Source: Candidatus Poribacteria bacterium (GTDB lineage Bacteria; Poribacteria; WGA-4E; WGA-3G). Taken from it: a stretch of DNA of 64,000 nt. The notes under the pieces are model-generated. The model searched no databases. It was not told where the DNA came from and worked only from the letters and a program-made list of their open reading frames with translations. Both the position numbers and the translations under genes were made by a program. The DNA lies in NCBI GenBank assembly GCA_028820635.1, contig JAPPIG010000116.1, positions 6,041-70,040 on the forward strand, in the 5' to 3' direction. Of this stretch, positions 4,156-22,136 are shown in pieces; the stretch's first letter is position 1, and every line of letters begins with the position of its first letter.

Positions 4156-6096
4156 CTATTTTGTGTCATCTGAAGCAGCGGCGATGCTCCATAGAAGTAT
4201 CGTTCCATCCGCACTTCCGCTTACAAGGGTACTTCCATCTGTATTGAAAGTGACACTGTTGACATCCCCTGTATGTCCCTTGAACGTCCAAATGTGTTTA
4301 CCTGTTTCAACATCCCATAGACGGATGGTATTGTCCGCACTCCCACTTGCGAGCGTGCTACCTTCCGGACTGAAAACAACGCTATTGACATTACTTGTAT
4401 GTCCTTTGAGTGTTTGCTTGAGTTTACCCGTCTTCGCATCCCACAATAGAATAGCATCCATCTCTTCACTCCACACTATATGACACCCACCCGCAAGTAT
4501 TTTTCCATCCGGACTAAACGCAACACTATTGATCTCTCCCATATTACCCGGAAGTGTCAGTTTGAGATTACCCGTCCCAACATCCCAAAGATGGATGGCC
4601 TTGTTCCCAAAATTATCCTCTCCATTATACGTTGCTTTGCCTCCACTTGCGATCATCTTCCCATCTGGGCTGAACGCCACACTGTTGACTTGCTCTTCAT
4701 GTCCATGGAGTGTAAGTATGTGTTTACCCGTCACAACATTCCAAAGATGGACGGAAGCATAACTCCCACTTGCTAATGTGCTACCCTCCGGGTTATACGT
4801 TAAGCTGGAAACACTCCCCGAATCTTGAGTAAGTGTCTGCTTGAGTTTTCCCGTAACCACATCCCATAGACGTATAGAACTTTCATAACTTCCACTCGCC
4901 AAAGTGCTACCATCTGGACTAAACACTACACTGCTAATATCACGGTCATGTCCTATTAGTGTGTGCTTGAGTGTTTTTGACTCCACGTCCCACACAAATA
5001 TGATACCACCACCACTCACCATGATATTTTTTTTAGAATTGAACGCTAAACTATTAACTGGGTCAGTAAAACCTGTGAGTGTATGGTTGTTCGTTCTTGT
5101 GGCAACATCCCAGACACGAATAATATTGTCGGAACTTGCACTTGCAAGCATTTCTCCATTCGGACTATAGGTAATACTTATGTTTTGACCAGTGTCTGTA
5201 AGTATGCGTGCCTGTTTACCCGTGGCGGCATCCCATAAACGAATATTATCCCAACCTCCGCTTGCGAACGTATGGTCCTTAGCACGGAACGCAAGACTTC
5301 TGACCGAATGCGTATGTCCTGTGAGTGTGCGTTTCAGTTTACCCGTGTCAACATCCCAGACTCGGATGGTATTGTCACTACTTGCACTTACTACCGTTTC
5401 TTTATCCGGCCCGAATGAAACACTGTTTATCCAATCTGTATGTCCTGCAAGTGTATGTAGTTGTTTACCTGTGTCAGCATCCCATAATTGGACAATATAC
5501 CCGGGCCAAGCCTCACCACTTGCAAATGTTTTACCATCTGGACTAAACGCCAAAGAATTGACCTGTCCTTGTGCTGTGAGTGTGCGTATGTGTTTGCCCG
5601 TAGCGGTATCCCACATTAGGACTTGAGCACCAAATATTTCACCTCCGCCACGTTCTCCAGTACTTCCACTTATAAGTGTACTACCATTTGGATTAAACGC
5701 AATACTGTAAACTCCATGTAGATGCCCTGTGAGTGTGCGCTTATGCTTGCCCGTTTTCACATCCCAAAGTCTTACAGACTTGTCCGCACTCCCACTCGCG
5801 AGCGTGCTACCATCAGGGCTGAAAGCAATACAATTTACGTTCTCCGTATGACCTGTCAGCAGAGCGATTTCTTTATAGGTTGCAGTATCATAAAGCCAAA
5901 TTCCGATAGAACCAGCAACTGCAAAACGTGTGCCATCCGGTGAATATTGTATTTGATTTATAGTGCCTTTACCGAACCGTGCTTTAGCTCCTTCGGGCAA
6001 ACTGAATTGTGTAGAATATTGGGCAAAAGTGTTCGGAAGATATAGTATTAAAAAGAGAAATAGTGTTGAAAAGAGAGGAAATAATAACTTTTTCAT
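4156..6096 (-). CDS. Secreted WD40-repeat protein without C-terminal dockerin/sorting module
   Basis: Signal peptide ending TFA-Q; LPEGAKARFGKG cap; about 14 GH...FSPDG..LASG..D.TIRLWD repeats. Confidence 0.93.
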   Translation of the reverse strand: MKKLLFPLFSTLFLFLILYLPNTFAQYSTQFSLPEGAKARFGKGTINQIQYSPDGTRFAVAGSIGIWLYDTATYKEIALLTGHTENVNCIAFSPDGSTLASGSADKSVRLWDVKTGKHKRTLTGHLHGVYSIAFNPNGSTLISGSTGERGGGEIFGAQVLMWDTATGKHIRTLTAQGQVNSLAFSPDGKTFASGEAWPGYIVQLWDADTGKQLHTLAGHTDWINSVSFGPDKETVVSASSDNTIRVWDVDTGKLKRTLTGHTHSVRSLAFRAKDHTFASGGWDNIRLWDAATGKQARILTDTGQNISITYSPNGEMLASASSDNIIRVWDVATRTNNHTLTGFTDPVNSLAFNSKKNIMVSGGGIIFVWDVESKTLKHTLIGHDRDISSVVFSPDGSTLASGSYESSIRLWDVVTGKLKQTLTQDSGSVSSLTYNPEGSTLASGSYASVHLWNVVTGKHILTLHGHEEQVNSVAFSPDGKMIASGGKATYNGEDNFGNKAIHLWDVGTGNLKLTLPGNMGEINSVAFSPDGKILAGGCHIVWSEEMDAILLWDAKTGKLKQTLKGHTSNVNSVVFSPEGSTLASGSADNTIRLWDVETGKHIWTFKGHTGDVNSVTFNTDGSTLVSGSADGTILLWSIAAASDDTK

Positions 6097-6212: not shown

Positions 6213-6243
6213 AAAAAAAGAGGGCAGACCGAAGTCTGCCCTC
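6213..6243 (-). terminator. Intrinsic terminator of the six-gene WD40 operon
   Basis: GAGGGCAGAC-TTCG-GTCTGCCCTC perfect 10-bp stem with cUUCGg loop followed by T7 on the minus strand, just after the stop at 6260. Confidence 0.9.
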
Positions 6244-6259
6244 AATAAATCTGAATATA

Positions 6260-8797
6260 TTATTTCCGTATCAACATCCTGCGTGTTGCTGTAAAATTAC
6301 CTACTGTTAGCGTATAAAAATAGACGCCACTTGCCACAGGTTCACCAACCTCATTCTTACCGTTCCAATATGCAGCACTATCCCGCTGCTGGTAGAGTCC
6401 TGCAGGCTGGTATCCTACATTTAATGTTCGAATCAACTTCGCATCAGAAGCATAAATCTGGATTGTTACATCTGCTGGTTCTGCCAACTGATACGGTATC
6501 CACGTTTCTGGGTTGAACGGGTTCGGATAGTTCGGGAGAAGTACTGTCTCTTTCGGTGTTAATGTGATCAAGAGTTGTTCAAGAAAACGGATGCCTTTTT
6601 GTGATGTTACATCTGTAAGGTTTAATTGTTGTGCTTGGGCAAGCCACTTTTGCAAATCTTTTGCGTTGAACGCGGTAAGTGTCTTTTGATACAAGGATGG
6701 TGCTCCCGCGTTATCTAACGCTGCTGCTACCTTGATAAGATCCGCAATATCAACCACACCATCACCATTTACATCTGCAGGATTTGGACCTGTTTGTCCG
6801 AAGTTTGCAGCAACAACCACCAAATCGTAGACATCTTCAACACCATCGCCGTTGACATCTGTTTCTAAAGATGGAGGTATAATTATTGTGGTAAAATCCC
6901 ACAGAAGAATGGTACCGTCGCTACTTGCAGTTGCGAGAATACTACCATCAGGACTAAAGGCAACAGTCGGAACACCGCTCTTATGTCCTGGAAGTGTTGC
7001 AATCTGTTCTCCCGTAGCAGGATTCCACAGATGCACTGTTGAGTCACTATAACCACCTCCGCTCACAAGAGTCTTGCCGTCAGGACTAAACGCGATACTT
7101 CTGAAACTGTTAGAAAGACCACTTATTGCGGTGTTAAGTTCCCCAGTAAGAATATCCCAAATTCGGATTTCACGCCCGCCTGCACATGCGAGTGTTCTAC
7201 CATCTGGACTAAAAGCGATGCTTGAAATAGAATAAGGGTGCCGGAAATATGTATCTTGACTATGTCTACTGTTAATATTCCAAAGATGTGTTTTATAGTC
7301 GCTTCCTCCGAAGGCAAGTGTTTCCCCATCGGGACTGAATGCAAGGTTACGAACACTATATCTGTCTCCAGGAAAAGTAACCAGATGATATCCTGTCGCA
7401 ACATCCCATAGGGTTACTCTACTATCAGCACTTCCAGTAGCCAGAATTCGTCCATCAGGGCTGAAGACGACGCTACTAACACTACGATTATGTCCAAGAA
7501 TCGTTGTAATATGTGTTTCAGAGACCGCATCCCACAATTTTACCGTATAATCATCCGAAAAAAATCTGCTGCTGATTGAACTAAAGTTAGCACTACTTGC
7601 AAGAGTTCGTCCATCGGAACTAAAAGCAACTGATTCAATACCGCCCACATGTCCAATTAGAGTCGCTTTGTTTCTACCGTTGGCAGTATCCCAAAGGTAC
7701 AAATTTCTATCCCATCCTCCACTTACAAGGGTACGTCCATCCGGACTGAAGGCTATACTGGAGAAATCCACAATATGTCCATTGATAGTTTTTATTGGTT
7801 CAAAAGTCTTAGCATCCCAGAGTATCACATTACCATCCCAGCTTCCACTTGCAAGGGTGCGTCCATCTGGACTAAACGCAACACTCACAACACCACCTTT
7901 GTGTGCAAACAGAGCTGTCTTGAACCTCTCACTTGCTACATCCCATAGGCATACAACACCATCCTCACCAGCACTGGCGAGTGTGGTTCCATTTGGATTG
8001 AATGCAACGCTTCTGATGCCTTCAGTATGTCCATAGAGGGTTACTTTCAAATCTCCTGTAGCTACATCCCAGAGTCGTACCTTTTCATCTAACCATCCTC
8101 CGGCACTTGCAAGAATCTGTCCATCGGGACTGAATGCGATGTCAGAGACATCGTCTGTATGTCCTATTAGGGTTGTTATGAGTGTTTCCGTAGCCAAATC
8201 CCAGAGTTCAACTGTGTGATCATCGGTTGCTCCGGCACTTGCAAAAAGTTGCCCATTGGAACTATACGTAACAGTAGTAATGTTTCCAACATTTCCAGCT
8301 ATTGAGGATTTGAGGGTTTCTGTTTCAATGTTCCAAAACATTATCGTGTCATCTTTATGTTCTCCACTACTTGCAAGAGTAGTTTCATCGGGACTGAATG
8401 CGATATCAGAGACATCGTCTGTATGCTCTGTTAGGGTTGTTTTAAGATTTCCTGTATCAACATCCCAAAGGAGCACCTCATGAGAACTGCCAGCAGCAAC
8501 GGTACGTCCGTCAGTACTGAAAGCAACACTTGAGATCTCGTCAGAATTACCGGTAAGCAACTTCAGTTCTTTACCAGTGTGTCCATCATAAATCCATACT
8601 CCGATCGAACTTCCAACAGCGAGTAGTGAATTATCTGGAGAGAAGACAATATCGCCGGATATGCTGCCTTTTCCTATACGAAGATATGCTCCCTCAGGCA
8701 ATTTCCATTGATTATAACCTTGCGCAAATGTGGTCGGTAGAAATTGCGTTAAAATGAGCAAGAATATTAAAATCAAAAGTCGCATCGTTTTCATCAA
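6260..8797 (-). CDS. Secreted WD40 + dockerin-like + FlgD/T9SS-A-like C-terminal domain protein, subtype B (B3)
   Basis: Signal peptide, WD40 repeats, two DVNGDGxVD/EDxxDL Ca-binding repeats, LLPNYPNPFNPETWIPYQL...ASGVYFY tail; FSDDY loop. Confidence 0.92.
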   Translation of the reverse strand: MMKTMRLLILIFLLILTQFLPTTFAQGYNQWKLPEGAYLRIGKGSISGDIVFSPDNSLLAVGSSIGVWIYDGHTGKELKLLTGNSDEISSVAFSTDGRTVAAGSSHEVLLWDVDTGNLKTTLTEHTDDVSDIAFSPDETTLASSGEHKDDTIMFWNIETETLKSSIAGNVGNITTVTYSSNGQLFASAGATDDHTVELWDLATETLITTLIGHTDDVSDIAFSPDGQILASAGGWLDEKVRLWDVATGDLKVTLYGHTEGIRSVAFNPNGTTLASAGEDGVVCLWDVASERFKTALFAHKGGVVSVAFSPDGRTLASGSWDGNVILWDAKTFEPIKTINGHIVDFSSIAFSPDGRTLVSGGWDRNLYLWDTANGRNKATLIGHVGGIESVAFSSDGRTLASSANFSSISSRFFSDDYTVKLWDAVSETHITTILGHNRSVSSVVFSPDGRILATGSADSRVTLWDVATGYHLVTFPGDRYSVRNLAFSPDGETLAFGGSDYKTHLWNINSRHSQDTYFRHPYSISSIAFSPDGRTLACAGGREIRIWDILTGELNTAISGLSNSFRSIAFSPDGKTLVSGGGYSDSTVHLWNPATGEQIATLPGHKSGVPTVAFSPDGSILATASSDGTILLWDFTTIIIPPSLETDVNGDGVEDVYDLVVVAANFGQTGPNPADVNGDGVVDIADLIKVAAALDNAGAPSLYQKTLTAFNAKDLQKWLAQAQQLNLTDVTSQKGIRFLEQLLITLTPKETVLLPNYPNPFNPETWIPYQLAEPADVTIQIYASDAKLIRTLNVGYQPAGLYQQRDSAAYWNGKNEVGEPVASGVYFYTLTVGNFTATRRMLIRK

Positions 8798-8805
8798 TTC
8801 TCCTC

Positions 8806-11301
8806 CTATTTACGTATGATCATACGTTTTGTTGCCGAGAACTTTCCGGTAGACAGTGTATAGAAATAGACTCCACTCGCTACGGGTTCACCAAATTCAT
8901 TTTTTCCATCCCAATATGCTGCTCGGTTCCGACTCTGATAAAGTCCCGCAGGTTGATGTCCTAACGATAGTGTCCGAATCAACTTTCCATCTGCAGAATG
9001 TATGTTTATTACCACATCCGTGTTTTCAGCCAGCTGATAAGGTATCCATGTCTCCGGATTGAAAGGATTGGGATAATTATTAAATAGCATCGTCTTTTTT
9101 GGTGTCAACACGGTTAAAAGATGTTCAAGTATAGCAATACCTCTTTGGATAGAAGGAGTTTTGCTGTTAACCTGTCGCGTTTGATTTAGCCATTGTTGCA
9201 CTTCCGCAGCGGTAAGCAATTCTATTGATCGAGAATATCTTGCTGGCGCGCCATTTGCATTCTGAAGTGCGGCTGCAACTGTTAAAATATCTGTAATGTC
9301 AACAACACCGTCTCCGTTTACATCAGCAGCGTTGTCAGTTCCCGACTGCCCGAATTGCGAAGCAACAAAAATAAGATCCTGAAGATCTACTATACCGTCG
9401 TCATTAACATCTTCTGCTAACTTTGGAGTGCCATCTGAAGTTTCAGATGTGAAATCCCATAAAAGCACTGTTCCATCCCTACTTCCGCTGGCAAATATCC
9501 TACCATCAGGACTGAAGGCGATGTCAGTAACACCACTTGTATGCCCAGAGAGGACATCTTGCCTTTGACGCGTTGCAACATCCCAAAGATACACTGTACT
9601 GTCATACCACCAGCCACTACTTGCGAGTGTTTTACCATCCACACTGAATGCTACATTATTCACGCCTTCTGGATGTCCAGTTAGCGTAGCTAATAGTTCC
9701 CCTGTAACAACATCCCACAATATTATTGTACCGTCTTTACTACCACTCGCAAGGATGGTTCCATTAGGACTAAATGCTACACAATGAACTTCATCAGTAT
9801 GTCCGATGAAAGTGTCAATGAGTGTATCAGTCACCACATCCCAGATGCGTACCGAGTGATCATCACTGCCGCTGGCAAGCGTGCGACTGTCGTAACTAAA
9901 ATCAACTGAATTAACAATATCAGTATGTCCCTTGAGTGTGCTTTTGTATATGCGACCAGAATACCAAATTACAATCTGTGCAGATCTATTTGTGCTGGCT
10001 AAATATCTTCCATCTGGACTGAATTCTATTGAAGCGAAATTTGAGGTTGATGCCTCTAAGCCATTAATTCTACCAATTGTGGCTTGATGTATTCCAGTGG
10101 TTAGGTACCAGAAACGGATGTTCGAACCGATGTTGCTTGCGAGATTTTTACCGTCTGGATTAAAAGTTAGGCTCCAATTGTGTGCCCAATCGTCATCAAT
10201 GAATTTAGTTTTGTGCGTGAGTGTGTTGACATCCCAAATGTTTATTTCGCCTCGGCTACCTGTGGCAAGAATGCCATTATCTGGACTAAAAGCAATTGCA
10301 TTTATACTTTTAGTATGTCCAGAAATAGACATTTTCTGTTCACCACTTCTCCAATCCCACAGAAACAATTGATCTGAACCGCAACTCGCAAGCGTCCTTC
10401 CATCAGGACTGAAGGCAACCGATGCAAAACGTGACACATGCCCGGTAAGTTCTGTTTTCAGCGTTCCAGAAGCAACATCCCACAAATACAATCTACCCGA
10501 CAATCCCTTAGTCACAAGAGTTCTACTGTCAGGACTAAACGTAATAGCTGATCCAGAGGGCAAATTTAATGTGCCTTTCGGTTCCCAAGTGTCCACATCC
10601 CAAAATACCACTTTCTTATCGTTAAAACTTGAACTGGCTAATGTCTTTCCATCAGGGCTGAAGGCAATTGAAGAAAGATATTCGGTATACGGCATTAAAG
10701 ATGTTTGATATTCACCTGTGACAGCATCCCACAAGTGAATATTGCCATCCCAACTTGCACTCGCAAATGTAGTTCCATCAGGGTTAAAGGTGAACGAGGT
10801 TATTGCATGATTATGTGCCGTGAGCGTAGCTTTTAGTTCGCCAGTAGCAATATCCCAAAGATATATTTCTTTTCTGGTACTACCAGCAAGCGTGCGATCA
10901 TCCGGACTAAAACTGACAACGCTAATATCTGAGGCATCTCCATTTAGAGTTTTTCTAAGATTTCCATTCGGAAAACTACGGAGCTGCAACGTATTATCTG
11001 AACCTAAACTGGCAGATGTCTGTGTATCTCGACTCAATCCGAGGATGTCAGTGTCATTCTCGGAGATAAAATCCAGTTCAATGCCTGTGTGTGCATCATA
11101 AATCCATATCCCAATAGCACTTCTAACGATTAATCGATTTCCATCGGCGGAATATCTTACACTTTCAAGAGATCCTTTGCCGAGACGGGCTATTGCCCCT
11201 TCAGGTAAATCCCAATTTGAAGGGTCTTGCCCAAAGGCACTTGGAAGCAAAAAGGTTAACATGAACAAGAATATTAAAAACGGAAGTCGTATTGTTTTCA
11301 T
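8806..11301 (-). CDS. Secreted WD40 + dockerin-like + FlgD/T9SS-A-like protein, subtype A (A3)
   Basis: Same architecture; GNRLIV..IGIW, WYSGRIY and LAEDVN...DLQDLIFVASQFGQ subtype-A signatures. Confidence 0.92.
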   Translation of the reverse strand: MKTIRLPFLIFLFMLTFLLPSAFGQDPSNWDLPEGAIARLGKGSLESVRYSADGNRLIVRSAIGIWIYDAHTGIELDFISENDTDILGLSRDTQTSASLGSDNTLQLRSFPNGNLRKTLNGDASDISVVSFSPDDRTLAGSTRKEIYLWDIATGELKATLTAHNHAITSFTFNPDGTTFASASWDGNIHLWDAVTGEYQTSLMPYTEYLSSIAFSPDGKTLASSSFNDKKVVFWDVDTWEPKGTLNLPSGSAITFSPDSRTLVTKGLSGRLYLWDVASGTLKTELTGHVSRFASVAFSPDGRTLASCGSDQLFLWDWRSGEQKMSISGHTKSINAIAFSPDNGILATGSRGEINIWDVNTLTHKTKFIDDDWAHNWSLTFNPDGKNLASNIGSNIRFWYLTTGIHQATIGRINGLEASTSNFASIEFSPDGRYLASTNRSAQIVIWYSGRIYKSTLKGHTDIVNSVDFSYDSRTLASGSDDHSVRIWDVVTDTLIDTFIGHTDEVHCVAFSPNGTILASGSKDGTIILWDVVTGELLATLTGHPEGVNNVAFSVDGKTLASSGWWYDSTVYLWDVATRQRQDVLSGHTSGVTDIAFSPDGRIFASGSRDGTVLLWDFTSETSDGTPKLAEDVNDDGIVDLQDLIFVASQFGQSGTDNAADVNGDGVVDITDILTVAAALQNANGAPARYSRSIELLTAAEVQQWLNQTRQVNSKTPSIQRGIAILEHLLTVLTPKKTMLFNNYPNPFNPETWIPYQLAENTDVVINIHSADGKLIRTLSLGHQPAGLYQSRNRAAYWDGKNEFGEPVASGVYFYTLSTGKFSATKRMIIRK

Positions 11302-11312
11302 TTTTTTATCTC

Positions 11313-13862
11313 CTATTTTTGTATGACCATGCGCCGCGTTGCTGTGATCTGTCCAGCAGAGAGTGTATAGAAATAGACTCCACTTGCGACAGGTTCACCA
11401 AATTCATTTTTACCATCCCAATATGCCGCACGATTCTGCTGCTGATAGAGTCCTGCAGACTGATTTCCTACATCTAATATCCGAATTAACTTACCATCTG
11501 AAGAATAGATATAGATTGTTACATCTGTAGCCTCTGCCAACTGATACGGTATCCATGTCTCTGGGTTGAAAGGGTTCGGATAGTTTGGGAGAAGTGCCGT
11601 CTTTTTCGGTGTCAACGCTACTAATAACTGTTCAAGGAAACGGATACCCTTTTGTGATGTTATATCTGTAAGGTTCAATTGTTGTACTTGGGTAAGCCAT
11701 TTCTGTACATCTGCTCTTGTAGGAGCGAACTTTTGATTGAGATTTACTGCCAAGGGTGCAGCTGCAGCGTTTTCTATGGCTCCTGCCACTTTGATAAGAT
11801 CCGCAATATTAACAATTCCGTCGCCATTCACATCCGCAGGATTTCGACCTGTTTGTCCGAAGTTTGCAGCAACAACGACTAAATCGAAAACATCAACCAC
11901 ACCATCTCCATTTACATCTGCTTCATGAGTTGATGGGTTGATTAAGGAAGCATAGTCCCACAATAGTATTGTCCCGCCACTTCCCATTGTTGCCAGAGTA
12001 TTGCCATCGGGACTAAACGCAAGGTTAAAAACACCATCAGGTGTTCCCATCAGCGTTAATTTGAGTTCGCCACTTTCTGGATCCCAGAACCGCATGGTGC
12101 CATCTTCCCAATACCCTGTAGTTACAAGCGTTTGCCCATCCGGGCTGAAGATAATATTCTTAAACCTTCCAACATGCCCAGTGATAATTGTGTTTTTCTT
12201 ACCAGTGTAAACATCCCACAAATGCACTTCCTGTCCACTGCCTCCAGTCGCAATGGTGTTCCCATCCGGACCGAATACAATATTGCTGGATTCGGATATA
12301 AAACCAGTAAAAGTTCTAATGAGTTTCCTGCTTGCGATATCATACAAATGTATTCCGGTATTATCTTCATATACGAACTTGCGACTATCCGGACTGAATG
12401 TAATACGCGAAACACCTTGCCCATTTCTGATGATCGTCCAAAGCGGGTGACCTGTGGCAGCATCCCAAAATATAGTTTTTTTATCTCCACTACTACTTAC
12501 GAGAAAGCGTCCATCTGGACTGAAGGTGACATAATAGATGCCACGCTCATGACCCAACAAAATTGCTTTTTCCTTACCAGAGTTTACATCCCATAGTCTT
12601 ACCGAGTAATCATCAGCGAACCATAGATTATCCGTCATTGTGCCGCCGCTACTGGCTATAGTGCGTCCATCTGGACTAAAGGCAACCCATTCAACAGGTC
12701 CTATATGTCCTATGAAAGTCTTTATGTTTTTGCCGCTTGCCGTATCCCAGAGTCGCACTGTTTTATCTCTACTACCGCTTACTATTGTGCGACCATCTGG
12801 ACGAAACGCTATATTGGAAAAATTTTGCACATGCCCGACTATTGTTGCTCTTTGCACAAGACTTTTCGTATCCCACAGAATGATAGTTCCATCCTTACTT
12901 CCACTCACCAAAGTAGTCCCGTCCGGACTAAACGCAACATTTGTGATTTCGTTAGAATGTTCAATAAGGGTTGTTTTGTAGCTACCTGTAGAAGCATCCC
13001 ACAGACACACTGTCTTATCTGTGCTACCAGTCGCAAGGGTGCTGCCATCCGGACTAAACGCGACACTATTGACACCCCCCATGTGTCCAATGAGGGCGGT
13101 TTTCAGCGTACCAGTTGCTATATCCCAAAGATGAACTTGGACTTTCCATACACCGCCGCAACTTGCTATTGTACTACCGTCTGGGCTGAATACGATATTA
13201 GCATCGTAAGGAGACCTATCTTCTGCTAATCTAATCGTTGCTTTAAGTTCACCAGTAGCAGCATCCCATAATTTCATCGCAGTTTCATCGTCCTCATAAC
13301 CACAACTAACAAGAATGGTGCCATCTGGACTGAAGGCAACGGTATCAACACCGTACTCATGACCCATCAATGTGGTTTTTAGCACGCCAGTTGAAACATC
13401 CCATAGTTTTACAGTTCTGTCTTCCGATTCACTACCAGTCGCAACCGTCTTTCCATCTGGACTAAAAGCAATACTTGTAATATAGCCTATGTTTCCTGAA
13501 ACAGTGCGTTGTAGATCGCCAGTGGCAACATCCCATAGATGAAATTTAGTGTAACCGCTGCTTGCGAGTGTTTTACCATCAGGACTGAACGCCACACTTG
13601 AGGGATAGCCTGTGTTATTTGTAAGTAAAGTGAGTTCTTTACCTGTATAACCATCGTAAATCCAAATCCCGATAGAACTTGCAACTGCGAGAAGAGAACT
13701 ATCTGGTGAAAAAGTGATATTGCCATATATCTCCCCTTTCCCTAAGCGCATTTTGGCACCCTCAGGCAGCCCCCATTGCAGGTAATCTTGGGAAAACGCA
13801 CTCGGTAAAGACCAAATTGAAATAAGAAATAGAATCAGAATCGAAAGTCGTATGATTTTCAT
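11313..13862 (-). CDS. Secreted WD40 + dockerin-like + FlgD/T9SS-A-like protein, subtype B (B2)
   Basis: GNITFSPDSSLLAV, WFADDY, DLVVVAANFGQTG subtype-B signatures. Confidence 0.92.
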   Translation of the reverse strand: MKIIRLSILILFLISIWSLPSAFSQDYLQWGLPEGAKMRLGKGEIYGNITFSPDSSLLAVASSIGIWIYDGYTGKELTLLTNNTGYPSSVAFSPDGKTLASSGYTKFHLWDVATGDLQRTVSGNIGYITSIAFSPDGKTVATGSESEDRTVKLWDVSTGVLKTTLMGHEYGVDTVAFSPDGTILVSCGYEDDETAMKLWDAATGELKATIRLAEDRSPYDANIVFSPDGSTIASCGGVWKVQVHLWDIATGTLKTALIGHMGGVNSVAFSPDGSTLATGSTDKTVCLWDASTGSYKTTLIEHSNEITNVAFSPDGTTLVSGSKDGTIILWDTKSLVQRATIVGHVQNFSNIAFRPDGRTIVSGSRDKTVRLWDTASGKNIKTFIGHIGPVEWVAFSPDGRTIASSGGTMTDNLWFADDYSVRLWDVNSGKEKAILLGHERGIYYVTFSPDGRFLVSSSGDKKTIFWDAATGHPLWTIIRNGQGVSRITFSPDSRKFVYEDNTGIHLYDIASRKLIRTFTGFISESSNIVFGPDGNTIATGGSGQEVHLWDVYTGKKNTIITGHVGRFKNIIFSPDGQTLVTTGYWEDGTMRFWDPESGELKLTLMGTPDGVFNLAFSPDGNTLATMGSGGTILLWDYASLINPSTHEADVNGDGVVDVFDLVVVAANFGQTGRNPADVNGDGIVNIADLIKVAGAIENAAAAPLAVNLNQKFAPTRADVQKWLTQVQQLNLTDITSQKGIRFLEQLLVALTPKKTALLPNYPNPFNPETWIPYQLAEATDVTIYIYSSDGKLIRILDVGNQSAGLYQQQNRAAYWDGKNEFGEPVASGVYFYTLSAGQITATRRMVIQK

Positions 13863-13874
13863 GAGTTTGGTCTC

Positions 13875-16382
13875 CTATTTTCGTATAACCATTCGTCGTG
13901 TTGCAGTGAAGTTTCCAGCAGAGAGTGTATAAAAGTAGACACCGCTCGCGATGGGTTCACCAAGTTCATTTTTTCCATCCCAATATGCTGCCCTACTTCG
14001 CTTTTGATATATCCCCGGAGATTGATTACCCAACACCAATGTCCGAACCAAATGTCCATCTGTGGAATAGATATGAAGTGTAACATCTGCTGAGTTTGCT
14101 AATTGATAAGGTATCCAAGTTTCTGGGTTGAAAGGGTTCGGATAGTTAGATAAAAGCATCGTCTTTTTTGGTGTTAACGTTACTAAGAGTTGTTCAAGCA
14201 CTGCGATGCCTTTATAGAATGCTGGTATTTTGCTGTTAACTTGTGCCGTTTTATTTAACCACTGTTGTACTTCTGCAGCTGTGAGTAAGTCTATTGATTG
14301 TGGATATCTTGATGGTGCGCCATTTACATTTTCCAGAGCAGCAGCAACTAACAAAATATCAGCGATGTTGATAACACCATCCCCGTTCACATCAGCTGCA
14401 TTTCCATCTCCTGGCTGTCCAAAATGGGACGCTACAAAGATTAAGTCTTGCAGGTCCACACTACCATCAAGGTTCGTATCCTCAGCAAGTTGTTGTATTT
14501 CATTTTTAGTGCCTAAAAAGGCAGTGTAATCCCATAAGAGAACCGTTCCATCCCAACTTCCAGTAGCAAGGATGCTACCATCAGGATTAAAATTTATGTT
14601 GTAAACACTACTCGTATGGTCTGTGAGGGTAGCTTTTAGTGCTCCAGTAGCAACATCCCAAATCTGTACTGTAGAGTTACGCCATTCTCCACTACTACTC
14701 ACAAGTGTGTTACCATCAACACTGAATGCAAGGCTACGTACCCCTTTGGTATAATCTGTATGGATCACCCTTGATTCTTCAGTAGCAACATCCCATAAAA
14801 TAATGGTATTATCCTCGCTACCACTGGCAACGATGCTCGCGTCAGCATTAACAGCAACACTTAACACTTTTTCCGTATGACCTGTGAAAGTTGCTAAGTT
14901 TGAACCAGTAGCGAAGTCCCACAAACGCACCGTGTGGTCATTACTTCCACTAACAAGGAGACGGTTATCACGACTAAACGCTATTGAAGTTACTTCTTCT
15001 GTATGTCCTATAAGCGCGTTTATATAGGTGCGGCCCCTATACCATAAATGTACAGTTTTATCATTATTTCCTGCGGCGAAGATCTGACCATCTGGACTGA
15101 ATGCAATGGAAGTATAGCCTGCAGTTAAAGAGCTGCCTCCTCCTCCTCCATACCACTTATAGAGTGCAGCAGTATGAGTTGCACTTGTAATGTCCCAAAG
15201 ATGTATTTGCAACCCTTCTAAACTTGCGAGTGTGTTGCCATCCGGATTGAACGCTAAATCAGAAATCAATGACCAATCCCCCACATATATCAGCTTTCTG
15301 TATTCACCTGTGGGAACATCCCAAAGATGAATTTTATGTCGACTCGAAGTAGCCAAGATATTGCCATCGGGACTTAACGCCATTCCTGCAACGCCCCTTG
15401 TATGACCAAAAATAGACATTTTACGCGCACCACTTTCAACATCCCACAGAAACAACTCGTCTCCTCCCCCACTCGCGAGGGTGCTACCGTCAGGACTGTA
15501 TGCTACAGAATTTATTCCCCACCGATGATGTCCACTGAGTACCGCCTTGAGAGTGCCAGTAGCAAGTTCCCATAGATATAAACCGTCAAAACCACCAGTT
15601 GCAATTGTTTTCCCATCCGGACTTATAGCAAAACTATTGACGGATAGAGTGTTGAAATCTTTTATCTTCTCTCCAGAATTAATATCCCATACCTTTATTT
15701 TTTCGGACGAATTCCCAGATATTAGCGTGTTTCCATCTGGACTGAACACGAAATTTCTGAGGCGTGCACGCTTGGACAAAGTACTTATATGTGAACCTGT
15801 GGTAATATCCCAGAATTGTAACAAACCCTCTGCATTTGAACTAAGAAGTCTCTTACCATCAGGACTGAATTCAACAAACTCTATACTATCTGTTTCTAAT
15901 TGGATTGTAATTGTTTGTTCTCCAGTAGAAATATCCCAGATACTAATTACATTACCAATGTCAGTCGCGAGTACGTTCTTATCAGGACTAAAGATGACAT
16001 AGCGGATATCTAATGTGTCACCCTTTAGTGTGCTTTTTACAGTGCCATCTGACATGTTTCGTACACTTGCTATGTTGTCTTTATTGATACTAACAAAGAT
16101 ATCGGCATAAGGACTTATACCCAATAAATTTGCAGGATTCTCAGCAATTAAATTCAATTCCGCACTTGTGTGTGTATCATATACCCAAATTCCTATGGAA
16201 CTTTCAACGATCAAATGATCGCCATCGGGCGAAAACTTGATATTACTAACACTTCCCTTGCCAAGACGTAATTTAGCCCCTTCAGGTAAATCCCATCGTG
16301 TATAGTCCTGCGCAAAACTGTTTGATGGAAAAGCCATCATAACTAACAGTAGCGTTAAAAGTGAGAGTTGCATCCTTTTCAT
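13875..16382 (-). CDS. Secreted WD40 + dockerin-like + FlgD/T9SS-A-like protein, subtype A (A2)
   Basis: LIVESSIG, WYRGRTY, DLQDLIFVASHFGQ. Confidence 0.92.
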   Translation of the reverse strand: MKRMQLSLLTLLLVMMAFPSNSFAQDYTRWDLPEGAKLRLGKGSVSNIKFSPDGDHLIVESSIGIWVYDTHTSAELNLIAENPANLLGISPYADIFVSINKDNIASVRNMSDGTVKSTLKGDTLDIRYVIFSPDKNVLATDIGNVISIWDISTGEQTITIQLETDSIEFVEFSPDGKRLLSSNAEGLLQFWDITTGSHISTLSKRARLRNFVFSPDGNTLISGNSSEKIKVWDINSGEKIKDFNTLSVNSFAISPDGKTIATGGFDGLYLWELATGTLKAVLSGHHRWGINSVAYSPDGSTLASGGGDELFLWDVESGARKMSIFGHTRGVAGMALSPDGNILATSSRHKIHLWDVPTGEYRKLIYVGDWSLISDLAFNPDGNTLASLEGLQIHLWDITSATHTAALYKWYGGGGGSSLTAGYTSIAFSPDGQIFAAGNNDKTVHLWYRGRTYINALIGHTEEVTSIAFSRDNRLLVSGSNDHTVRLWDFATGSNLATFTGHTEKVLSVAVNADASIVASGSEDNTIILWDVATEESRVIHTDYTKGVRSLAFSVDGNTLVSSSGEWRNSTVQIWDVATGALKATLTDHTSSVYNINFNPDGSILATGSWDGTVLLWDYTAFLGTKNEIQQLAEDTNLDGSVDLQDLIFVASHFGQPGDGNAADVNGDGVINIADILLVAAALENVNGAPSRYPQSIDLLTAAEVQQWLNKTAQVNSKIPAFYKGIAVLEQLLVTLTPKKTMLLSNYPNPFNPETWIPYQLANSADVTLHIYSTDGHLVRTLVLGNQSPGIYQKRSRAAYWDGKNELGEPIASGVYFYTLSAGNFTATRRMVIRK

Positions 16383-16392
16383 TGTTTTTCTC

Positions 16393-18939
16393 CTATTTCA
16401 GTATTACCATGCGCCGCGTTGCTGTGAACTGTCCAGCAGAGAGTTTGTAGAAATAGACTCCACTTGCAACAGGTTCACCGACCTCATTCTTACCGTTCCA
16501 ATACGTAGCACGATTCCGCTGCTGATAAAGTCCTGCAGGCTGATGTCCCATATCTAAAGTGCGAATCAACTGTCCATCGGAAGCATAAATCTGGATTTTT
16601 ATATCTGCAGCCTCTGCCAATTGATACGGTATCCAAGTTTCTGGGTTGAATGGGTTCGGATAATTAGGTAACAGAATTGTCTTTTTCGGTGTTAATGTAA
16701 GCAAGAGTTGCTCAAGAAAACGGATACCTTTTTGTGATGTTACATCTGTCAGGTTGAGCTGCTGTGCCTGTATGAGCCATTGTTGCAAATCTTTTGCGTT
16801 GAACGCGGTAAGTGTCTTTTGATACAAGGATGGTGCTCCCGCGTTATCTAACGCTGCAGCTACCTTGATAAGATCGGCAATATTAACAACACCATCTCCA
16901 TTTACATCTGCAGAATTTGGACCTGTTTGTCCAAAGTTTGCAGCAACTACGACCAAATCGGAAACATCAACAATACCATCACCATTTACATCTGTTTCAT
17001 GAGTTGATGGATTGATTAAGGAAGCATAGTCCCACAATAGTATAATTCCCGTATCGACCGATAGGGCAAGTGTCTTACCATCGGGGCTAATCGCAAGATG
17101 ATATTCACCATCTGGTATATCCTTGAGCATTAGTTTGAGTGCACCACTTTCTGGATCCCAAAACCGCAATGTTCCATCTTCCCAAAAACTTGTAGTTACG
17201 AGCGTCTGCCCATCAGGACTGAAAAGGACATGTTTAAACTCGCCAACATGCCCAGTGATAATTGTGTTTCTCTCGCCAGTGTAGACATTCCACAAATGTA
17301 CTTCCTGACCACTCCCACCAGCCGCAATTGTGTTCCCATCCGGACTGAATACGATTTTACTGGTTTTGGGTATGAAACCAGTATACGTTTTAATTAGTTT
17401 TCTACTTGCGAAATCCCACAAATGGATTCCGGTACTATCTCCATATATGAACTTAAGACTATCCGGACTGGACGTAATGTCCCCAACTCCTTTCTCAATT
17501 CCAGTGAACGTCCAAAGAAGATCACCTGTGGCAGCATCCCAAAAAATGGGTTTTAGATTAGAAGCGTAAGTTGTGAGAACCCGTCCATCCGGGCTAAAGG
17601 TGACACGATGGATGTCATGTTTATGTCCAATAATTGTTGCTTTCTGGGATCCGGAGTGAACATCCCATAACCTTATCGGGTAGTCATCAGCAAACCATCT
17701 ATCCTCATAAATTACGCCACCGCTACTGGCTATAGTGCGTCCATCTGGACTAAAGGCAACCGATATAACTGGACCGAGGTGTCCTATCAAGGTTTTTTGG
17801 TTTTTGCCAGTTGTCGTATCCCACAGTCGCACCTTTGTATCCCTACTTCCACTCACAATTGTGTGTCCATCTGGACTGAACGCTATCTGTGAGAACCCTG
17901 ATATATGTCCTGTGATGGTAGTTCTTCGCTCAAGCTTCTCCGCATCCCACAGAATGATAGTGCCATCCTTACTATAACTTGCAAGAGTAGTTCCATCTGG
18001 ACTATATGCAACGCTCGCGACATCATCAGTATGTGCTATCAGCGTTGTCTTATAATTACCTGTAGCAACATCCCACAGACACACCGTATTATCCAGACTA
18101 CCACTCGCAAGTGTACGGCTATCCGGACTAAAAACTACATCGTTGACGCCGCCTACGTGTCCTATAAGGGTGTTTTTCAGGGTGCCACTTGCTATATCCC
18201 AAAGATAGATATGTGCGGCATATCGACTACCACAAATTGCTATTGTGCTGCTGTCTGGACTAAATGCGATATTCGCGTCGTACGCCCTCCTATCTTCTGT
18301 TAATAGAAAAGTTGCTCTGAGTTCACCAGTAGCAACATCCCATAATTTCATTGTAGTGTCTTCCCCTTCATAACCACCACTAACGAGAAATGTTCCATCT
18401 GGACTGAAGGCGATGGTATCAACACCCCTCTGATGCACCGTAAGGGAGTTTTTTAGTTCTCCGCTTGAAACATCCCAAAACTTGACTGTTCCATCTTTAT
18501 AATACCCGCTACTTGTCGCGATCGTTTTTCCATTAGGGTTGAATACTATACTTGAGATAGATCTGGTGTGCGCAGATATAGTTAGCTTGAGATTACCAGT
18601 GTCAACATCCCACAAAAAAAGTTCGGAAGAATCATTACATGCAAGTGTTTTACCATCAGAACTGAATGCTATTTTGGAGTAATAGTCTAAATTACTTGAT
18701 AGCAAATTGAGTGCCTTCCCAGTGAAGCCATCGTAAATCCAAATCCCAATTGGAGTGGTAACTGCAAGTAGAGAACTATCTGGCGAAAAAGTGATATTGC
18801 CAGTTATCTCTCCTTTCCCGATACGCATTTTTGCCCCTTCAGGCAAGCCCCATTGCATGTAATCTTGCGAAGAAGCATTTGGTGAAAAGTGAATTGAAAT
18901 AAGAGCAAGCAGTAAAATGGTGGATCGTATCGTCTTCAT
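16393..18939 (-). CDS. Secreted WD40 + dockerin-like + FlgD/T9SS-A-like protein, subtype B (B1)
   Basis: GNITFSPDSSLLAV, WFADDY, DLVVVAANFGQTG. Confidence 0.92.
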   Translation of the reverse strand: MKTIRSTILLLALISIHFSPNASSQDYMQWGLPEGAKMRIGKGEITGNITFSPDSSLLAVTTPIGIWIYDGFTGKALNLLSSNLDYYSKIAFSSDGKTLACNDSSELFLWDVDTGNLKLTISAHTRSISSIVFNPNGKTIATSSGYYKDGTVKFWDVSSGELKNSLTVHQRGVDTIAFSPDGTFLVSGGYEGEDTTMKLWDVATGELRATFLLTEDRRAYDANIAFSPDSSTIAICGSRYAAHIYLWDIASGTLKNTLIGHVGGVNDVVFSPDSRTLASGSLDNTVCLWDVATGNYKTTLIAHTDDVASVAYSPDGTTLASYSKDGTIILWDAEKLERRTTITGHISGFSQIAFSPDGHTIVSGSRDTKVRLWDTTTGKNQKTLIGHLGPVISVAFSPDGRTIASSGGVIYEDRWFADDYPIRLWDVHSGSQKATIIGHKHDIHRVTFSPDGRVLTTYASNLKPIFWDAATGDLLWTFTGIEKGVGDITSSPDSLKFIYGDSTGIHLWDFASRKLIKTYTGFIPKTSKIVFSPDGNTIAAGGSGQEVHLWNVYTGERNTIITGHVGEFKHVLFSPDGQTLVTTSFWEDGTLRFWDPESGALKLMLKDIPDGEYHLAISPDGKTLALSVDTGIILLWDYASLINPSTHETDVNGDGIVDVSDLVVVAANFGQTGPNSADVNGDGVVNIADLIKVAAALDNAGAPSLYQKTLTAFNAKDLQQWLIQAQQLNLTDVTSQKGIRFLEQLLLTLTPKKTILLPNYPNPFNPETWIPYQLAEAADIKIQIYASDGQLIRTLDMGHQPAGLYQQRNRATYWNGKNEVGEPVASGVYFYKLSAGQFTATRRMVILK

Positions 18940-18950
18940 TTTTTAGTCTC

Positions 18951-21536
18951 CTATTTTCGTATGACCATGCGCCGTGTTGCAGTGAAGTTTCCAGCAGAGA
19001 GGGTATAAAAGTAGATACCGCTCGCGACGGGTTCACCAAACTCATTTTTACCGTCCCAATATGCTGCCTTATCTCGATTCTGATAGTTTCCCGCAGGTTG
19101 ATTGCCTAATAGCAATGTCCGTACCAGCTGTCCATCTGTAGCATAGATGCGAAGTGTGACATCTGAAGGCTTTGCCAACTGATACGGTATCCAAGTTTCA
19201 GGATTAAACGGGTTCGGGTAGTTGGATAATAGCATCGTCTTTTTTGGAGTCAATACTGCTAAGAGTCCTTCAAGCATTGCGATGCCTTTCCGGTATTTTA
19301 GTATATTGGTGTTGACTTGCCACGTTTGACTTAACCACTGTTCTACTTCTGTAGCGGAGATCAATTCTATAGATGCCGGTTCTAATGACGGAGCACCATT
19401 CTCATTAGCAAGCGCAGCAGCAACTAATAAGATATCCGCGATGTTGATAACACCATCTCCGTTCACATCGGCGGCACTATCATTTCCTGACTGCCCAAAT
19501 TGTGACGCTACAAAAATTAGATCCCGTAGATCTACACTACCATCACGATTCACATCCTCAGCGAGTTGTTCTGTTTCATTTTCAGTGCCTATAATTGCAG
19601 GGTAATCCCATAAAAGAATCGTTCCGTCCCCACTTCCACTGATAAGTGTTCTGCCATCAGGACTAAAGACAACAATGGGACCACCACGCGTATGTGCTGT
19701 AATGTTAGTTATCAATTCACCCGTAGCAACATCCCATATCTGTATGATTGGATCTTCCCAATTCCCACAACTTAAGAGTGTTTTACCATCATTACTGAAT
19801 GTAAGTTGATGTATCCCGTTGGTGTGTTCAGTATGGATAATCCGCGGATTACCAGTCGTAACATCCCACAGAATAATCGTGTTATCCTCACTTCCACTGG
19901 CAACTATGCTTTCATCCGGTTTAAATGCGACACTATGGACTTTGTCTGTATGTCCGGAGAAAGTTTTTATATTTGATCGGGAAGTAAAATCCCAGAGGCG
20001 CACTGTACCATCATAACTTCCACTGACAAGGGTACGGTTATCACGACTAAAAGCAATTGAAGTTACCTCATCTGTGTGTCCTTTAAGCGCGTCTATATAG
20101 GTGCGTCCCTTATACCACAAATGTACTGTTGAATCCTCATGTGCTGCAGCGAGGAGATTGCCATCTGGACTGAAAGCAATAGACCTATATTTTTGAGATG
20201 CCGTTGTGGTGTTTGCTATCCCATGACCGTACCACTTATAAATAACAGTAATTTGTGCGGTACTGGAAACGTCCCAAAGATGAATTGCCCAAAAAGCTAA
20301 ACTTGCAAGCGTGTTTCCATCCGGACTGAAAACTAAATCCCTATGATATGAAAGTCTTCCTCGTCCATATATAAACTTTTTGTATTCGCCTGTATTAGGA
20401 TCCCATAAATGGATATTGTGCGAATTCGAAGTGGCAAGGAGATTACCATTTGGACTGATTGCCATTCCAGCAACACCGCTTGTATGTCCAGTAATAGACA
20501 ATTTGCGCTCACCACTTTCAACGTCCCACAGATATAGTTCATCGATGCCTCCACTCGCGAGCGTGCTACCATCCGGACTGAACGCTACTGAAAATACCCA
20601 TGAAAAACTTCTACCAAGTTCAGCTATGTGCGTTCCCGTAGCAACATTCCACAGATGCAAGCCTGAATAACCGCCGGTTGCAAGCGTGTTACCATCCGGA
20701 CTTATAGCTATACACCGGAGCGATAGTGCGTCAAATTCAATTATCCTCTTTCCAGTGTTAACATCCCACACCTGTACGTTATAGTTCGTATCTCCACTTA
20801 TGAGCGTGCTCCCATCTGAACTGAAGGCAAGATAACGTATTCCTCGCGTATACTTGGATAAAGTAACTTTGTGTGTAGCAGTCGCAACATCCCATAGTCG
20901 TAGGGTGCGATCCGAACTTACACTTGCAAGTGTCGAACCATCGAGGCTAAAGACAATAGATCCTACCCATTTAGTATGTCCTTCAAGAGTCGCATTCTGT
21001 TCTCCAGTATTAAGATTCCAAAGATGGATATCTTCATTACTGGCACCTGCAAGCACCTGAACATCCGAACTAAAGGCAATACGGTGAATATCCTCCGTAT
21101 CCCCTTTTAGGGTTACCTTAACGCTACCATCTGTTAAGTCCCGCAATTGTATTGTATCGTCTGCTCCCTTACTAACATACATACTGGCATCCGGACTCAC
21201 ACCGAGTACGTTCGAAGGATTCTCAGCAACAAAATCCAATTCCACACCTGTGTGTGTATCATATACCCACATACCTATGGAACTTTCAACGATCAAACGG
21301 TTGCCATCGGGTGAAAACGTGAGATTACCAACACTTCCCTTGCCAAGACGCATCTTAGCCCCGTCAGGTAAATTCCATCGTGTATAGTCCTGGGCAAAGG
21401 TATTCTGTAGAAATAGGGTTGAAATTACAAACAGTAGTAAAATCGGATTCTTAATTAAAAATTGCAAAAAACCCTTGTGCCGTAACTTATTTTTTTCGCT
21501 TTTTGTCTGAATGTTCTGGAATTTAGTAGATGTCAT
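18951..21536 (-). CDS. Secreted WD40 + dockerin-like + FlgD/T9SS-A-like protein, subtype A (A1)
   Basis: LIVESSIG, WYKGRTY, DLRDLIFVASQFGQ; long basic n-region signal peptide; AGGAG RBS upstream. Confidence 0.92.
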   Translation of the reverse strand: MTSTKFQNIQTKSEKNKLRHKGFLQFLIKNPILLLFVISTLFLQNTFAQDYTRWNLPDGAKMRLGKGSVGNLTFSPDGNRLIVESSIGMWVYDTHTGVELDFVAENPSNVLGVSPDASMYVSKGADDTIQLRDLTDGSVKVTLKGDTEDIHRIAFSSDVQVLAGASNEDIHLWNLNTGEQNATLEGHTKWVGSIVFSLDGSTLASVSSDRTLRLWDVATATHKVTLSKYTRGIRYLAFSSDGSTLISGDTNYNVQVWDVNTGKRIIEFDALSLRCIAISPDGNTLATGGYSGLHLWNVATGTHIAELGRSFSWVFSVAFSPDGSTLASGGIDELYLWDVESGERKLSITGHTSGVAGMAISPNGNLLATSNSHNIHLWDPNTGEYKKFIYGRGRLSYHRDLVFSPDGNTLASLAFWAIHLWDVSSTAQITVIYKWYGHGIANTTTASQKYRSIAFSPDGNLLAAAHEDSTVHLWYKGRTYIDALKGHTDEVTSIAFSRDNRTLVSGSYDGTVRLWDFTSRSNIKTFSGHTDKVHSVAFKPDESIVASGSEDNTIILWDVTTGNPRIIHTEHTNGIHQLTFSNDGKTLLSCGNWEDPIIQIWDVATGELITNITAHTRGGPIVVFSPDGRTLISGSGDGTILLWDYPAIIGTENETEQLAEDVNRDGSVDLRDLIFVASQFGQSGNDSAADVNGDGVINIADILLVAAALANENGAPSLEPASIELISATEVEQWLSQTWQVNTNILKYRKGIAMLEGLLAVLTPKKTMLLSNYPNPFNPETWIPYQLAKPSDVTLRIYATDGQLVRTLLLGNQPAGNYQNRDKAAYWDGKNEFGEPVASGIYFYTLSAGNFTATRRMVIRK

Positions 21537-21582
21537 AGGTTTGGACTCCTATCTATTTTGTTTCCTACTACAGAAACATATT

Positions 21583-21598
21583 AGCAAATCTGATGCCA
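21583..21598 (-). promoter_or_regulatory. Sigma-54 (-24/-12) type promoter
   Basis: Minus strand TGGCATCAGATTTGCT = GG-N10-GC, close to consensus TGGCAC-N5-TTGCW, about 47 nt upstream of the A1 start. Confidence 0.7.
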
Positions 21599-21925
21599 AT
21601 TAGTGCGCCTGTTAACAACATAAAAATGTATCGTTTGATAGGAAATTGAACATGGAAATTAGGTTATATTGTCAAAAAGTAACATCATTGTCCATAATTT
21701 GAACACTCACAGCGTTATATTCAAATAGTTCAGGTGTTTAGTGTCAAAAGACAATCTGCACGAAAATGCACAATTGTTTTTCATGTGCACATTTTAGGGC
21801 AGATAAAGGCAGAGGATTTTATACAGTTAATGTGGTATGAGAATTTTGCTATTTGGGAAATGCCAAAAATGTGGGTAAATGCAAAGGGTTTAATGGAATT
21901 TGGGAGGGTATGAGAAAAGGATGAT

Positions 21926-22060
21926 TATAGTAAATTATATAGAAAAGTTTACATATATTCTGTACGAGCGATCTCCGAATCGCGACGAAACCACTAATAG
22001 TCGGGAATCGGAGTTCCCTTCTACAGATCAGATGTAAAGTTAATTGTAGAATTCACTATA
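21926..22060. mobile_element. TA-flanked MITE enclosing a GTAG-type REP doublet (REPIN-like)
   Basis: Imperfect TIR TATAGTAAATT...GTTTACAT / ATGTAAAG...AATTCACTATA; core 21961-22025 is a near reverse complement of the core at 42404-42468. Confidence 0.7.
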
Positions 22061-22082
22061 AAAACCCAAAAACCATGAGGAA

Positions 22083-22136
22083 CGTAGGGCAAGAGGGTTT
22101 TTAGTCCCTTTACGGCGGTATTGTACTTGCCCTACG
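22083..22136. repeat. GTAG-type palindrome downstream of the cohesin-WD40 gene
   Basis: CGTAGGGCAAG...CTTGCCCTACG perfect 11-bp inverted repeat. Confidence 0.7.

Follow-up and report, generated by a model that had tools for sequence, protein, structure and literature searches.

In Bacteroidota, SusC/SusD-like pairs are encoded by an outer-surface two-gene unit whose members lie adjacent in one order and are multiplied as a unit, and whose products form a complex. The members of UTP-B assemble as hetero-oligomers of paralogous double propellers and therefore provide a precedent for the pairing of paralogs. Sponge symbionts carry many eukaryote-like repeat proteins, which have usually been reported as domain counts only. 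For Poribacteria, Kamke et al. 2014 (PMC3909097) describe many WD40 genes with a TIGR04183-type Por tail; they also report that the Por structural genes were not found and leave the secretion route unresolved. Here we describe an array of six WD40 genes in a window of 64,000 nucleotides (nt) from a Candidatus Poribacteria bacterium (assembly GCA_028820635.1, contig JAPPIG010000116.1, positions 6,041 to 70,040; coordinates below are counted from the first letter of this window). The six genes belong to two subtypes, A and B, and the evidence firmly supports an ancient, co-inherited and co-duplicated A-B cassette of exported double-propeller proteins. Por-tailed WD40 proteins are a known feature of the phylum, and the paired cassette was not found in the literature matches listed: judged by title and start of abstract, none of those papers deals with A and B subtypes, a two-gene unit, variable copy number or order, a raised evolutionary rate or a cohesin-dockerin context in Poribacteria.

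Examination of positions 6260-21536 revealed six open reading frames (ORFs) of 831-861 amino acids (aa), all co-oriented on the minus strand. Genes g1 (18951-21536, 861 aa), g3 (13875-16382, 835 aa) and g5 (8806-11301, 831 aa) are of subtype A, and genes g2 (16393-18939, 848 aa), g4 (11313-13862, 849 aa) and g6 (6260-8797, 845 aa) are of subtype B, giving the order A-B-A-B-A-B along the array. The length of g6 is counted from a TTG; the ATG one codon further on, 8 nt past an AGGAGG, appears from this context to be the likelier start. Protein identity is 52-62% between A proteins and 55-69% between B proteins, and 41-46% between an A and a B. At the DNA level, long repeats of 63-84% identity recur with a period of 5059-5082 nt, which is the length of the two-gene unit. 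A sequence-only reading of the window had proposed three copies of a two-gene unit, and both the alternating identities and the repeat period bear it out. Each of the six subtype motifs that it had listed is present in all three proteins of its own subtype and in none of the five other WD40 proteins of the region.

The same order of parts is found in each of the six proteins, namely a signal-peptide-like N-terminus, a WD40 region, a dockerin, two helices and a C-terminal beta-sandwich. By inspection of the sequences, all six N-termini begin with basic residues, continue into a hydrophobic helix and reach an F[AGS]-Q-type site, as a putative Sec signal peptide would. The WD40 family PF00400 scores 256-386 bits in the six array proteins, and WD40 matches are found in all eight proteins of the region when the products of the directly adjacent upstream and downstream genes ('up' and 'dn', described below) are included. 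AlphaFold2 (AF2) models of g5 and g6, with a mean predicted local distance difference test score (pLDDT) of 81.2 and 86.2 respectively, each contain 56 strands forming 14 blades, that is, two 7-bladed propellers. The best fold match retrieved with Foldseek was 2ymu_A, a solved 14-repeat double propeller (E 2e-52, 35% identity over 601 columns). In g5, the WD40 strands occupy aa 36-616 (9454-11196), the dockerin aa 630-679 (9265-9414), the two helices aa 698-732 and the C-terminal beta-sandwich aa 743-831 (8809-9075).

The sequence-only reading had left the dockerin and the C-terminal domain, of the kind that T9SS (type IX secretion system) sorts, unnamed. A Pfam scan of the C-terminal parts of g1, g2, g5 and g6 placed Dockerin_1 (PF00404, type I dockerin) above its cut-off of 22.9 bits in three of the four (39.1 bits in g1, 31.9 in g2 and 33.0 in g5) and just below it in g6 (22.5 bits); two D.N.DG loops are present in all six proteins. 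The subtype motifs DLIFVAS.FGQ and DLVVVAANFGQTG fall within the dockerin, the sequence of which differs by subtype. The NCBIfam model TIGR04183 (T9SS type A sorting domain) was applied to g1 and g2, where it reaches 38.3 and 35.2 bits respectively (cut-off 23). In the four proteins covered by Pfam the same region matches FlgD_ig with 31-38 bits (35.5 in g5 and 31.0 in g6; cut-off 27), compared with 19-26 bits for Por_Secre_tail, below its cut-off of 27.

A and B were then compared with arrays from 11 same-genus genomes (numbered with G, the genome of the window being G000) and with further loci (numbered with L) from the genome collection. In a tree of the propeller parts with 101 rows, 36 rows of subtype A group in one clade with support of 100, and 36 rows of subtype B in another with support of 99; a single additional row, labelled B by BLAST, falls outside the B clade. 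When 33 paralogs from the genome of the window were added (the best-scoring of its 104 other matching ORFs), none entered either clade and the support was 99 for A and 100 for B. An IQ-TREE analysis of 33 rows gave support of 99 for A and 98 for B. The separation into two clades, which the sequence-only reading had anticipated, thus appears with support of 98-100 throughout. The difference between profile hidden Markov model (HMM) scores was considered as an A/B classifier and rejected, as consensus-like paralogs such as C49:95677-97572 score high with both models; trees and best-hit lists were preferred.

Linkage of the two subtypes and variation in the number of units, likewise expected from the sequence alone, both hold in the relatives. 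Every array or locus fetched has A followed by B on one strand, and B lies directly downstream of A in 31 of the 36 A rows. The remaining five A rows, and five B rows that have no upstream A, are accounted for by locus or contig ends, by frameshifted partners (A in G002 and B in L042) or by the motif filter. Arrays comprise one unit (G001, G008, G018, L039), two units (G002, G005, G010, G014), three units (G000, G016) or four units (G004, G017). Both genes are kept in single-unit genomes and loci (G001, G007, G008, G015, G018, L039, L057, L059 and L060), among which the more distant L057, L059 and L060 carry a single A-B pair without dockerin at the syntenic locus, with flanking genes 76-87% identical to those of the window and A and B only about 40-46% identical. 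Three additional A-B pairs were found in G007, in G015 and at a second locus of G001. Both types occur in 13 of the 18 same-genus genomes, and no genome was seen with only one of them. Neither type was found in G003, G006, G009, G011 and G012, where the B search was made with P0002 at E <= 1e-100 and scored 63-150 candidates per genome, without a positive control. Across 31 pairs, the pairwise distances that separate the A proteins correlate with the distances between the corresponding B partners (r = 0.934), a value reached by none of 2000 shuffles of partners within genomes. The order of units is g1-g2-g3-g4-g5-g6 in G000 and L035, as opposed to g1-g2-g5-g6-g3-g4 in G016 (L017/L018) and G013 (L015), which reflects either a reshuffling of whole units or an error in one assembly. 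In the four-unit arrays, the A gene of the last unit (L023 12300-14825 in G017; L025 11383-13899 in G004) encodes a full-length product of 838-841 aa without the NPFNP sorting motif, and G004 has a 550-aa A fragment between units.

Each subtype carries one long loop at a fixed place. In the A proteins it is the D-A loop of repeat 10, at 20187-20237 in g1, with its equivalents at 15114-15158 in g3 and 10036-10071 in g5; in the B proteins it is the turn between strands B and C of repeat 9, which carries a conserved W[FY]ADDY, at 17680-17721 in g2, with its equivalents at 12606-12647 in g4 and 7547-7591 in g6 (all on the minus strand). These positions deviate by no more than a few bases from those at which the sequence-only reading had put one insertion per subtype, and the AF2 models contain exactly one 15-residue loop per subtype, the remaining top loops having at most 9 residues. 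Both long loops have low pLDDT. In the usual WD40 geometry, D-A loops and B-C turns are situated on the top face, which is the usual binding face. On this general geometry rather than on model coordinates, the two long loops would both border blade 9 and sit on the second propeller's top face. The enlarged A loop is present in 36 of 36 A proteins, its lengths spanning 7 residues, and the B insert with W[FY]ADDY is present in most B proteins, being missing in the L057 type and in three paralog lineages.

The sequence-only reading had also taken these loops to be variable. They would lie on the top face, given the geometry above. When the 14 repeats are taken together, the top-face loops show the highest variability of any class, with an entropy of 1.9-2.0 bits compared with 0.8-1.0 for the A-B loops. 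The long loops are not hypervariable among close orthologs: the g2 loop is identical in five of five orthologs, the g3 loop is identical or differs by one residue, 3-9 of 17 positions differ in the g1 loop and the g5 loop differs strongly, and the dN/dS of top loops pooled by structural class is 0.30-0.36, compared with 0.15-0.22 for strands. Between orthologs, dN/dS amounts to 0.15-0.40 for the A and B propellers, 0.15 for 'up' and 0.04-0.07 for three flanking genes. The array proteins therefore evolve fast, mostly on the binding face, and there is no evidence of positive selection at this resolution.

Recombination has left a mark within the array. By sliding-window identity, a gene-conversion tract of about 300 nt links about 16690-16989 of g2 with about 6548-6847 of g6 (minus strand), over the second half of the dockerin and the linker; DNA identity in the tract is 87-96%, compared with about 55% in the propeller part, which shows recombination between genes of the same subtype inside the array. 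The C-terminal modules of the B genes show a dS of 0.65-1.28 between orthologs, several-fold above that of the propellers.

Candidate signs of contact between A and B were also considered. A complementary conservation of top loops (blades 11, 12 and 14 in A, blades 6-9 in B) was dropped as an interface hint because these blades simply keep canonical GH/WD motifs. Co-variation of loop length between partners was set aside as well: a B without the insert accompanies an A with a short loop in four lineages, the g5/g6 lineage breaks this rule and the independent events are too few. A complex prediction of the second propeller of g5 (aa 318-625) with the propellers of g6 (aa 28-640) scored 0.31 against a mark of 0.32, one unrelated control scoring 0.42, and is used neither way.

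Regarding transcription, the gaps between the six genes are 8-12 nt, TAGGAG lies just 5' of the ATG at every junction, and a terminator-like hairpin (6243-6220, minus strand; 10 pairs, 7 of them G-C, followed by a T run) is located 17 nt past the g6 stop. These features make an operon the natural reading of the six genes, and the array is probably expressed as one transcript. Upstream of g1, the spacer at 21537-22149 (613 nt) appears to be the sole gap in the array region with room for a promoter, and a single promoter would be expected there. The proposal of one promoter and one terminator thus fared unevenly: the hairpin agrees with it, and the promoter finds little backing, as the spacer holds a single weak consensus match (21843-21816) and promoter-like matches across the region are fewer than in shuffled sequences (34 versus 43.5). 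The spacer also contains, at about 21916-22060, an element of about 100-150 nt which is multi-copy and has an internal inverted repeat. A blastn search of the spacer against its own genome gave 352 high-scoring segment pairs, up to 267 of which overlap at 21957-21996, and the bin that holds the element (21928-22591) has about 24-57 times the depth of neighbouring bins in four public runs. It looks like a repeat of the miniature inverted-repeat transposable element (MITE) or repetitive extragenic palindrome (REP) type.

Two further WD40 genes border the array on the same strand. The 'up' gene (22150-25038) encodes 962 aa with a signal-peptide-like N-terminus, a WD40 double propeller, a cohesin (26.6 bits, cut-off 24.1), a dockerin (Dockerin_1, 35.4 bits) and a T9SS-type C-terminal domain (FlgD_ig, 40.3 bits). 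It lies directly upstream of the array in nine of the 14 genomes with a visible upstream side (G000, G002, G005, G007, G010, G014, G015, G017 and L039) and not in G001, G008, G013, G016 and L057. On the other side, the 'dn' gene (4156-6096) encodes 646 aa with a signal-peptide-like N-terminus and a bare WD40 double propeller, without dockerin or C-terminal sorting domain; it is probably a separate transcript, because it has its own Shine-Dalgarno sequence and follows the terminator. The flanks of the array carry an aspartate-kinase-type gene, PhyH and WelO5-like oxygenases, a HAD hydrolase, an oxidoreductase, a sulfotransferase and a periplasmic binding protein, and this gene content led us to reject a mobile island or a defence context. 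Just upstream of the WD40 genes, the stretch 25600-27323 holds a putative WelO5-like 2-oxoglutarate (2OG)-dependent halogenase/oxygenase (91 bits) and a PhyH dioxygenase. These genes are syntenic with the array in the compared upstream flanks of L033, L035, L039, L057, L059 and L060, and a 278-aa gene of this stretch is syntenic also in G017 and L038.

As for the habitat, the public runs in which this DNA is best represented are sponge metagenomes, no RNA run being listed among them, in agreement with the sponge symbiont setting suggested from the sequence alone. Contigs of four runs from four studies contain pieces across 11940-21552 in which a few per cent of the letters differ; the g5-g6 part (about 6.6-11.3 kb) has low cover in these contigs at 90% likeness and constitutes a hole in the contig data.

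The genome of the window (5.97 Mb, 136 contigs) holds many related parts. Forty-seven of its ORFs end in the sorting motif, and dockerin-like loops are present in 35 of these; 16 cohesin matches were counted. Four of these matches are found in one 838-aa ORF (C34:364801-367317), which also has a dockerin and a sorting domain like a scaffoldin, and cohesins occur in eleven other ORFs. Such a set of genes suggests a poribacterial cohesin-dockerin surface network without link to cellulose degradation. At E <= 1e-30, the A or B propeller models find 111 ORFs, the majority of about 620-650 aa and without sorting domain, which, on sequence matches, is a very large WD40 expansion for a 6-Mb genome. 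Additional three-gene tandem arrays (C1:59321-66109, C1:76725-82974, C118:83624-98597 and C62:98377-108055) end in the same dockerin-plus-sorting module, with N-terminal parts that are different or not of WD40 type.

Matches to PorU, SprA and PorV of the export machinery all stayed below the family cut-offs. A PorU-like ORF scores 307 bits (cut-off 420), the best SprA-like segment 61.6 (cut-off 200) and a PorV-like ORF 98.7 (cut-off 250), the GldK matches are confined to the FGE-like half of the model, and a search for GldM gave no match in this genome and was equally silent with control genomes. Five ORFs with such sub-threshold matches are C134:112361-117877, C34:377094-382214, C117:95008-98958, C122:48741-49718 and C9:130472-131425, the giant ones resembling PorU (the 307-bit match) and SprA and the smaller ones PorV. 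On C9 and C118, a PorV-like match lies right beside a PorU-tail-like match. These matches hint at a divergent T9SS-like export system in Poribacteria.

The overall picture is of a sponge-associated Poribacterium in which an old two-gene cassette is present in three diverged copies that would form one operon. The products would be exported by the Sec pathway through their N-terminal signal peptides and would then fold into two 7-bladed WD40 propellers each, after which the T9SS-type C-terminal domain may take the protein to the cell surface or release it; in members of this genus, the sorting domain follows a type I dockerin and a linker of two helices. The propellers would be binding modules, with the top-face loops, including the long subtype-specific loop next to blade 9, as likely ligand surface and a host or matrix protein as the probable ligand. 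A and B would be non-redundant partners which go through inheritance, duplication, relocation and loss together, with A always ahead of B, and which most likely act as a cognate pair in one surface assembly. Units may be gained and lost by unequal recombination between genes of the same subtype, leading to one to four units of different specificity per species.

Surface display and ligand binding are suggested by the domain set, and the functional coupling of A and B by their co-retention in single-unit genomes, their joint relocation and their joint absence; a physical A-B heterodimer is plausible, and unproven. For the whole reading, that is, a co-retained cassette of surface-displayed binding proteins in which A and B are needed together and act as a cognate pair in one assembly, we have a slight preference only. 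A more specific version is doubtful at present: cognate A and B would make up a heterodimeric surface receptor of four propellers, each unit would bind a different sponge or matrix ligand through its variable top faces, and the gain, loss and reshuffling of units would tune a lineage to its host. Several observations weigh against the cognate pair. Contact between A and B is shown by no result of this analysis. Unit-wise duplication alone would produce both the mirrored trees and the 1:1 ratio, and unequal crossover between genes of the same subtype would keep the alternation without selection for pairing. The gap from A to B is as short as that from B to A (a median of about 11 nt in both cases), so that no special coupling of A to B is indicated. 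In G002 an intact B accompanies a broken A, and in L042 an intact A accompanies a broken B; decay or an error of assembly may be the cause. Neither partner of L057 has the dockerin, and in G007 and G014 the A protein lacks it, so that it cannot be essential to the pair. The dN/dS is below 1 in every structural class, with no sign of an arms race at this resolution, and a canonical T9SS is not demonstrated as export route, the PorU-, PorV- and SprA-like matches all being below their cut-offs.

Under a rival explanation, the alternation would be a neutral by-product, A and B being old paralogs of an exported WD40 family that are neighbours by chance and whose proteins work independently. Because recombination would occur only between genes of the same subtype, A and B sharing about 55% DNA identity, the array would grow and shrink only by whole 5.07-kb A-B units. 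The regular repeat period, the difference in unit order between G000/L035 and G016/G013, the uniform junctions and a genome rich in propeller ORFs and in other tandem sorting-domain arrays all fit such an origin, and the g2-g6 conversion tract shows same-subtype recombination directly. It leaves unexplained, however, why both genes are kept in single-unit genomes despite an identity of about 40-46%, why they moved together to the second locus of G001, and why neither was found in five same-genus genomes while none has just one. We consider this explanation rather unlikely, and it stays substantial because unit-wise recombination alone can maintain the alternation. Alternatively, A and B might never touch and would be gathered by their subtype-specific dockerins on cohesin-bearing surface proteins, in a cellulosome-like and non-enzymatic scaffold. 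The Dockerin_1 scores of g1, g2 and g5, the cohesin of the 'up' product, the 16 cohesin matches (four in one ORF) beside 35 ORFs with dockerin-like loops and sorting motif, and the divergence of dockerins between subtypes speak for such a scaffold, and a dockerin-based assembly in this genus is possible from these domains. It cannot be the basis of the pair, however, as there is no dockerin in either L057 partner or in the A protein of G007 and of G014. The arrays of G001, G008, G013 and G016 also have no 'up' cohesin gene; as an account of the pair, the scaffold is improbable. The sequence-only reading had gone further and imagined a mixing of three A with three B chains, loosely like antibody heavy and light chains; if any A could combine with any B, nine surface receptors would result. 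Only general facts are in its favour, namely that both subtypes are multi-copy and that top-face loops differ between copies. Duplication proceeds strictly by cognate unit and the trees of the two partners are mirror images; there is only one unit in many species, and loops are stable within ortholog groups, as in the invariant g2 loop. No result points to mixing, and the unit-wise duplication argues for cognate pairs, if there is pairing at all; free combination is thus highly improbable.

Whatever the relation between the partners, the locus offers a concrete object for the study of symbiont repeat proteins, as a syntenic and fast-evolving operon, variable in copy number, whose exported double propellers obey a strict grammar of two partners. 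Should the partners prove to bind one another as well as a ligand of the host, it would represent a defined host-recognition system in an uncultivated phylum and a rare case of extracellular WD40 receptors in bacteria. If A and B prove to form a heterodimeric receptor, it would be a bacterial, WD40-based and cassette-encoded receptor repertoire. The genome-wide occurrence of dockerin-plus-sorting modules together with cohesins further gives reason to think of non-cellulolytic surface networks in this phylum.

The proteins described by Kamke et al. 2014 (PMC3909097) are alike in coming from the same phylum and in combining WD40 repeats with a TIGR04183-type tail. The available portion of that work differs in giving domain counts, without A and B subtypes, two-gene unit, tandem array, link to dockerins and cohesins, or rate analysis, and its Tables S8 and S9 may list the present genes. 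The structure closest in fold, PDB 2ymu ('highly repetitive propeller structure'), likewise has two 7-bladed propellers in one chain, whereas no signal peptide, dockerin or sorting domain is visible in its structure listing. We take its source to be a cyanobacterium. Double 7-bladed propellers are also found in UTP-B (chains of the 90S pre-ribosome), Aip1 and EML-type proteins, with Foldseek E values of 1e-33 to 1e-42; in contrast to the array proteins, with which they share 15-21% identity, they are intracellular, have no export signals and possess unrelated C-terminal parts. The T9SS cargo of Bacteroidota has an N-terminal Sec signal, to which the signal-peptide-like N-termini of the array proteins may correspond, and shares the C-terminal beta-sandwich, here a TIGR04183 match above cut-off that is modelled as a sandwich, but the host of the array is not a member of the Bacteroidota, its PorU-, PorV- and SprA-like matches are below cut-offs and its genome yielded no GldM in a search silent also in controls. 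By analogy, the nearest genetic organization is that of SusC/SusD, with which the cassette shares a two-gene surface unit, a fixed order and unit-wise multiplication, the complex being known for Sus and plausible here. SusC/SusD differ in consisting of a TonB-dependent transporter and a lipoprotein, unrelated in fold and function to the double propellers, and their units are scattered, whereas those of the Poribacterium follow one another in a single tandem operon.

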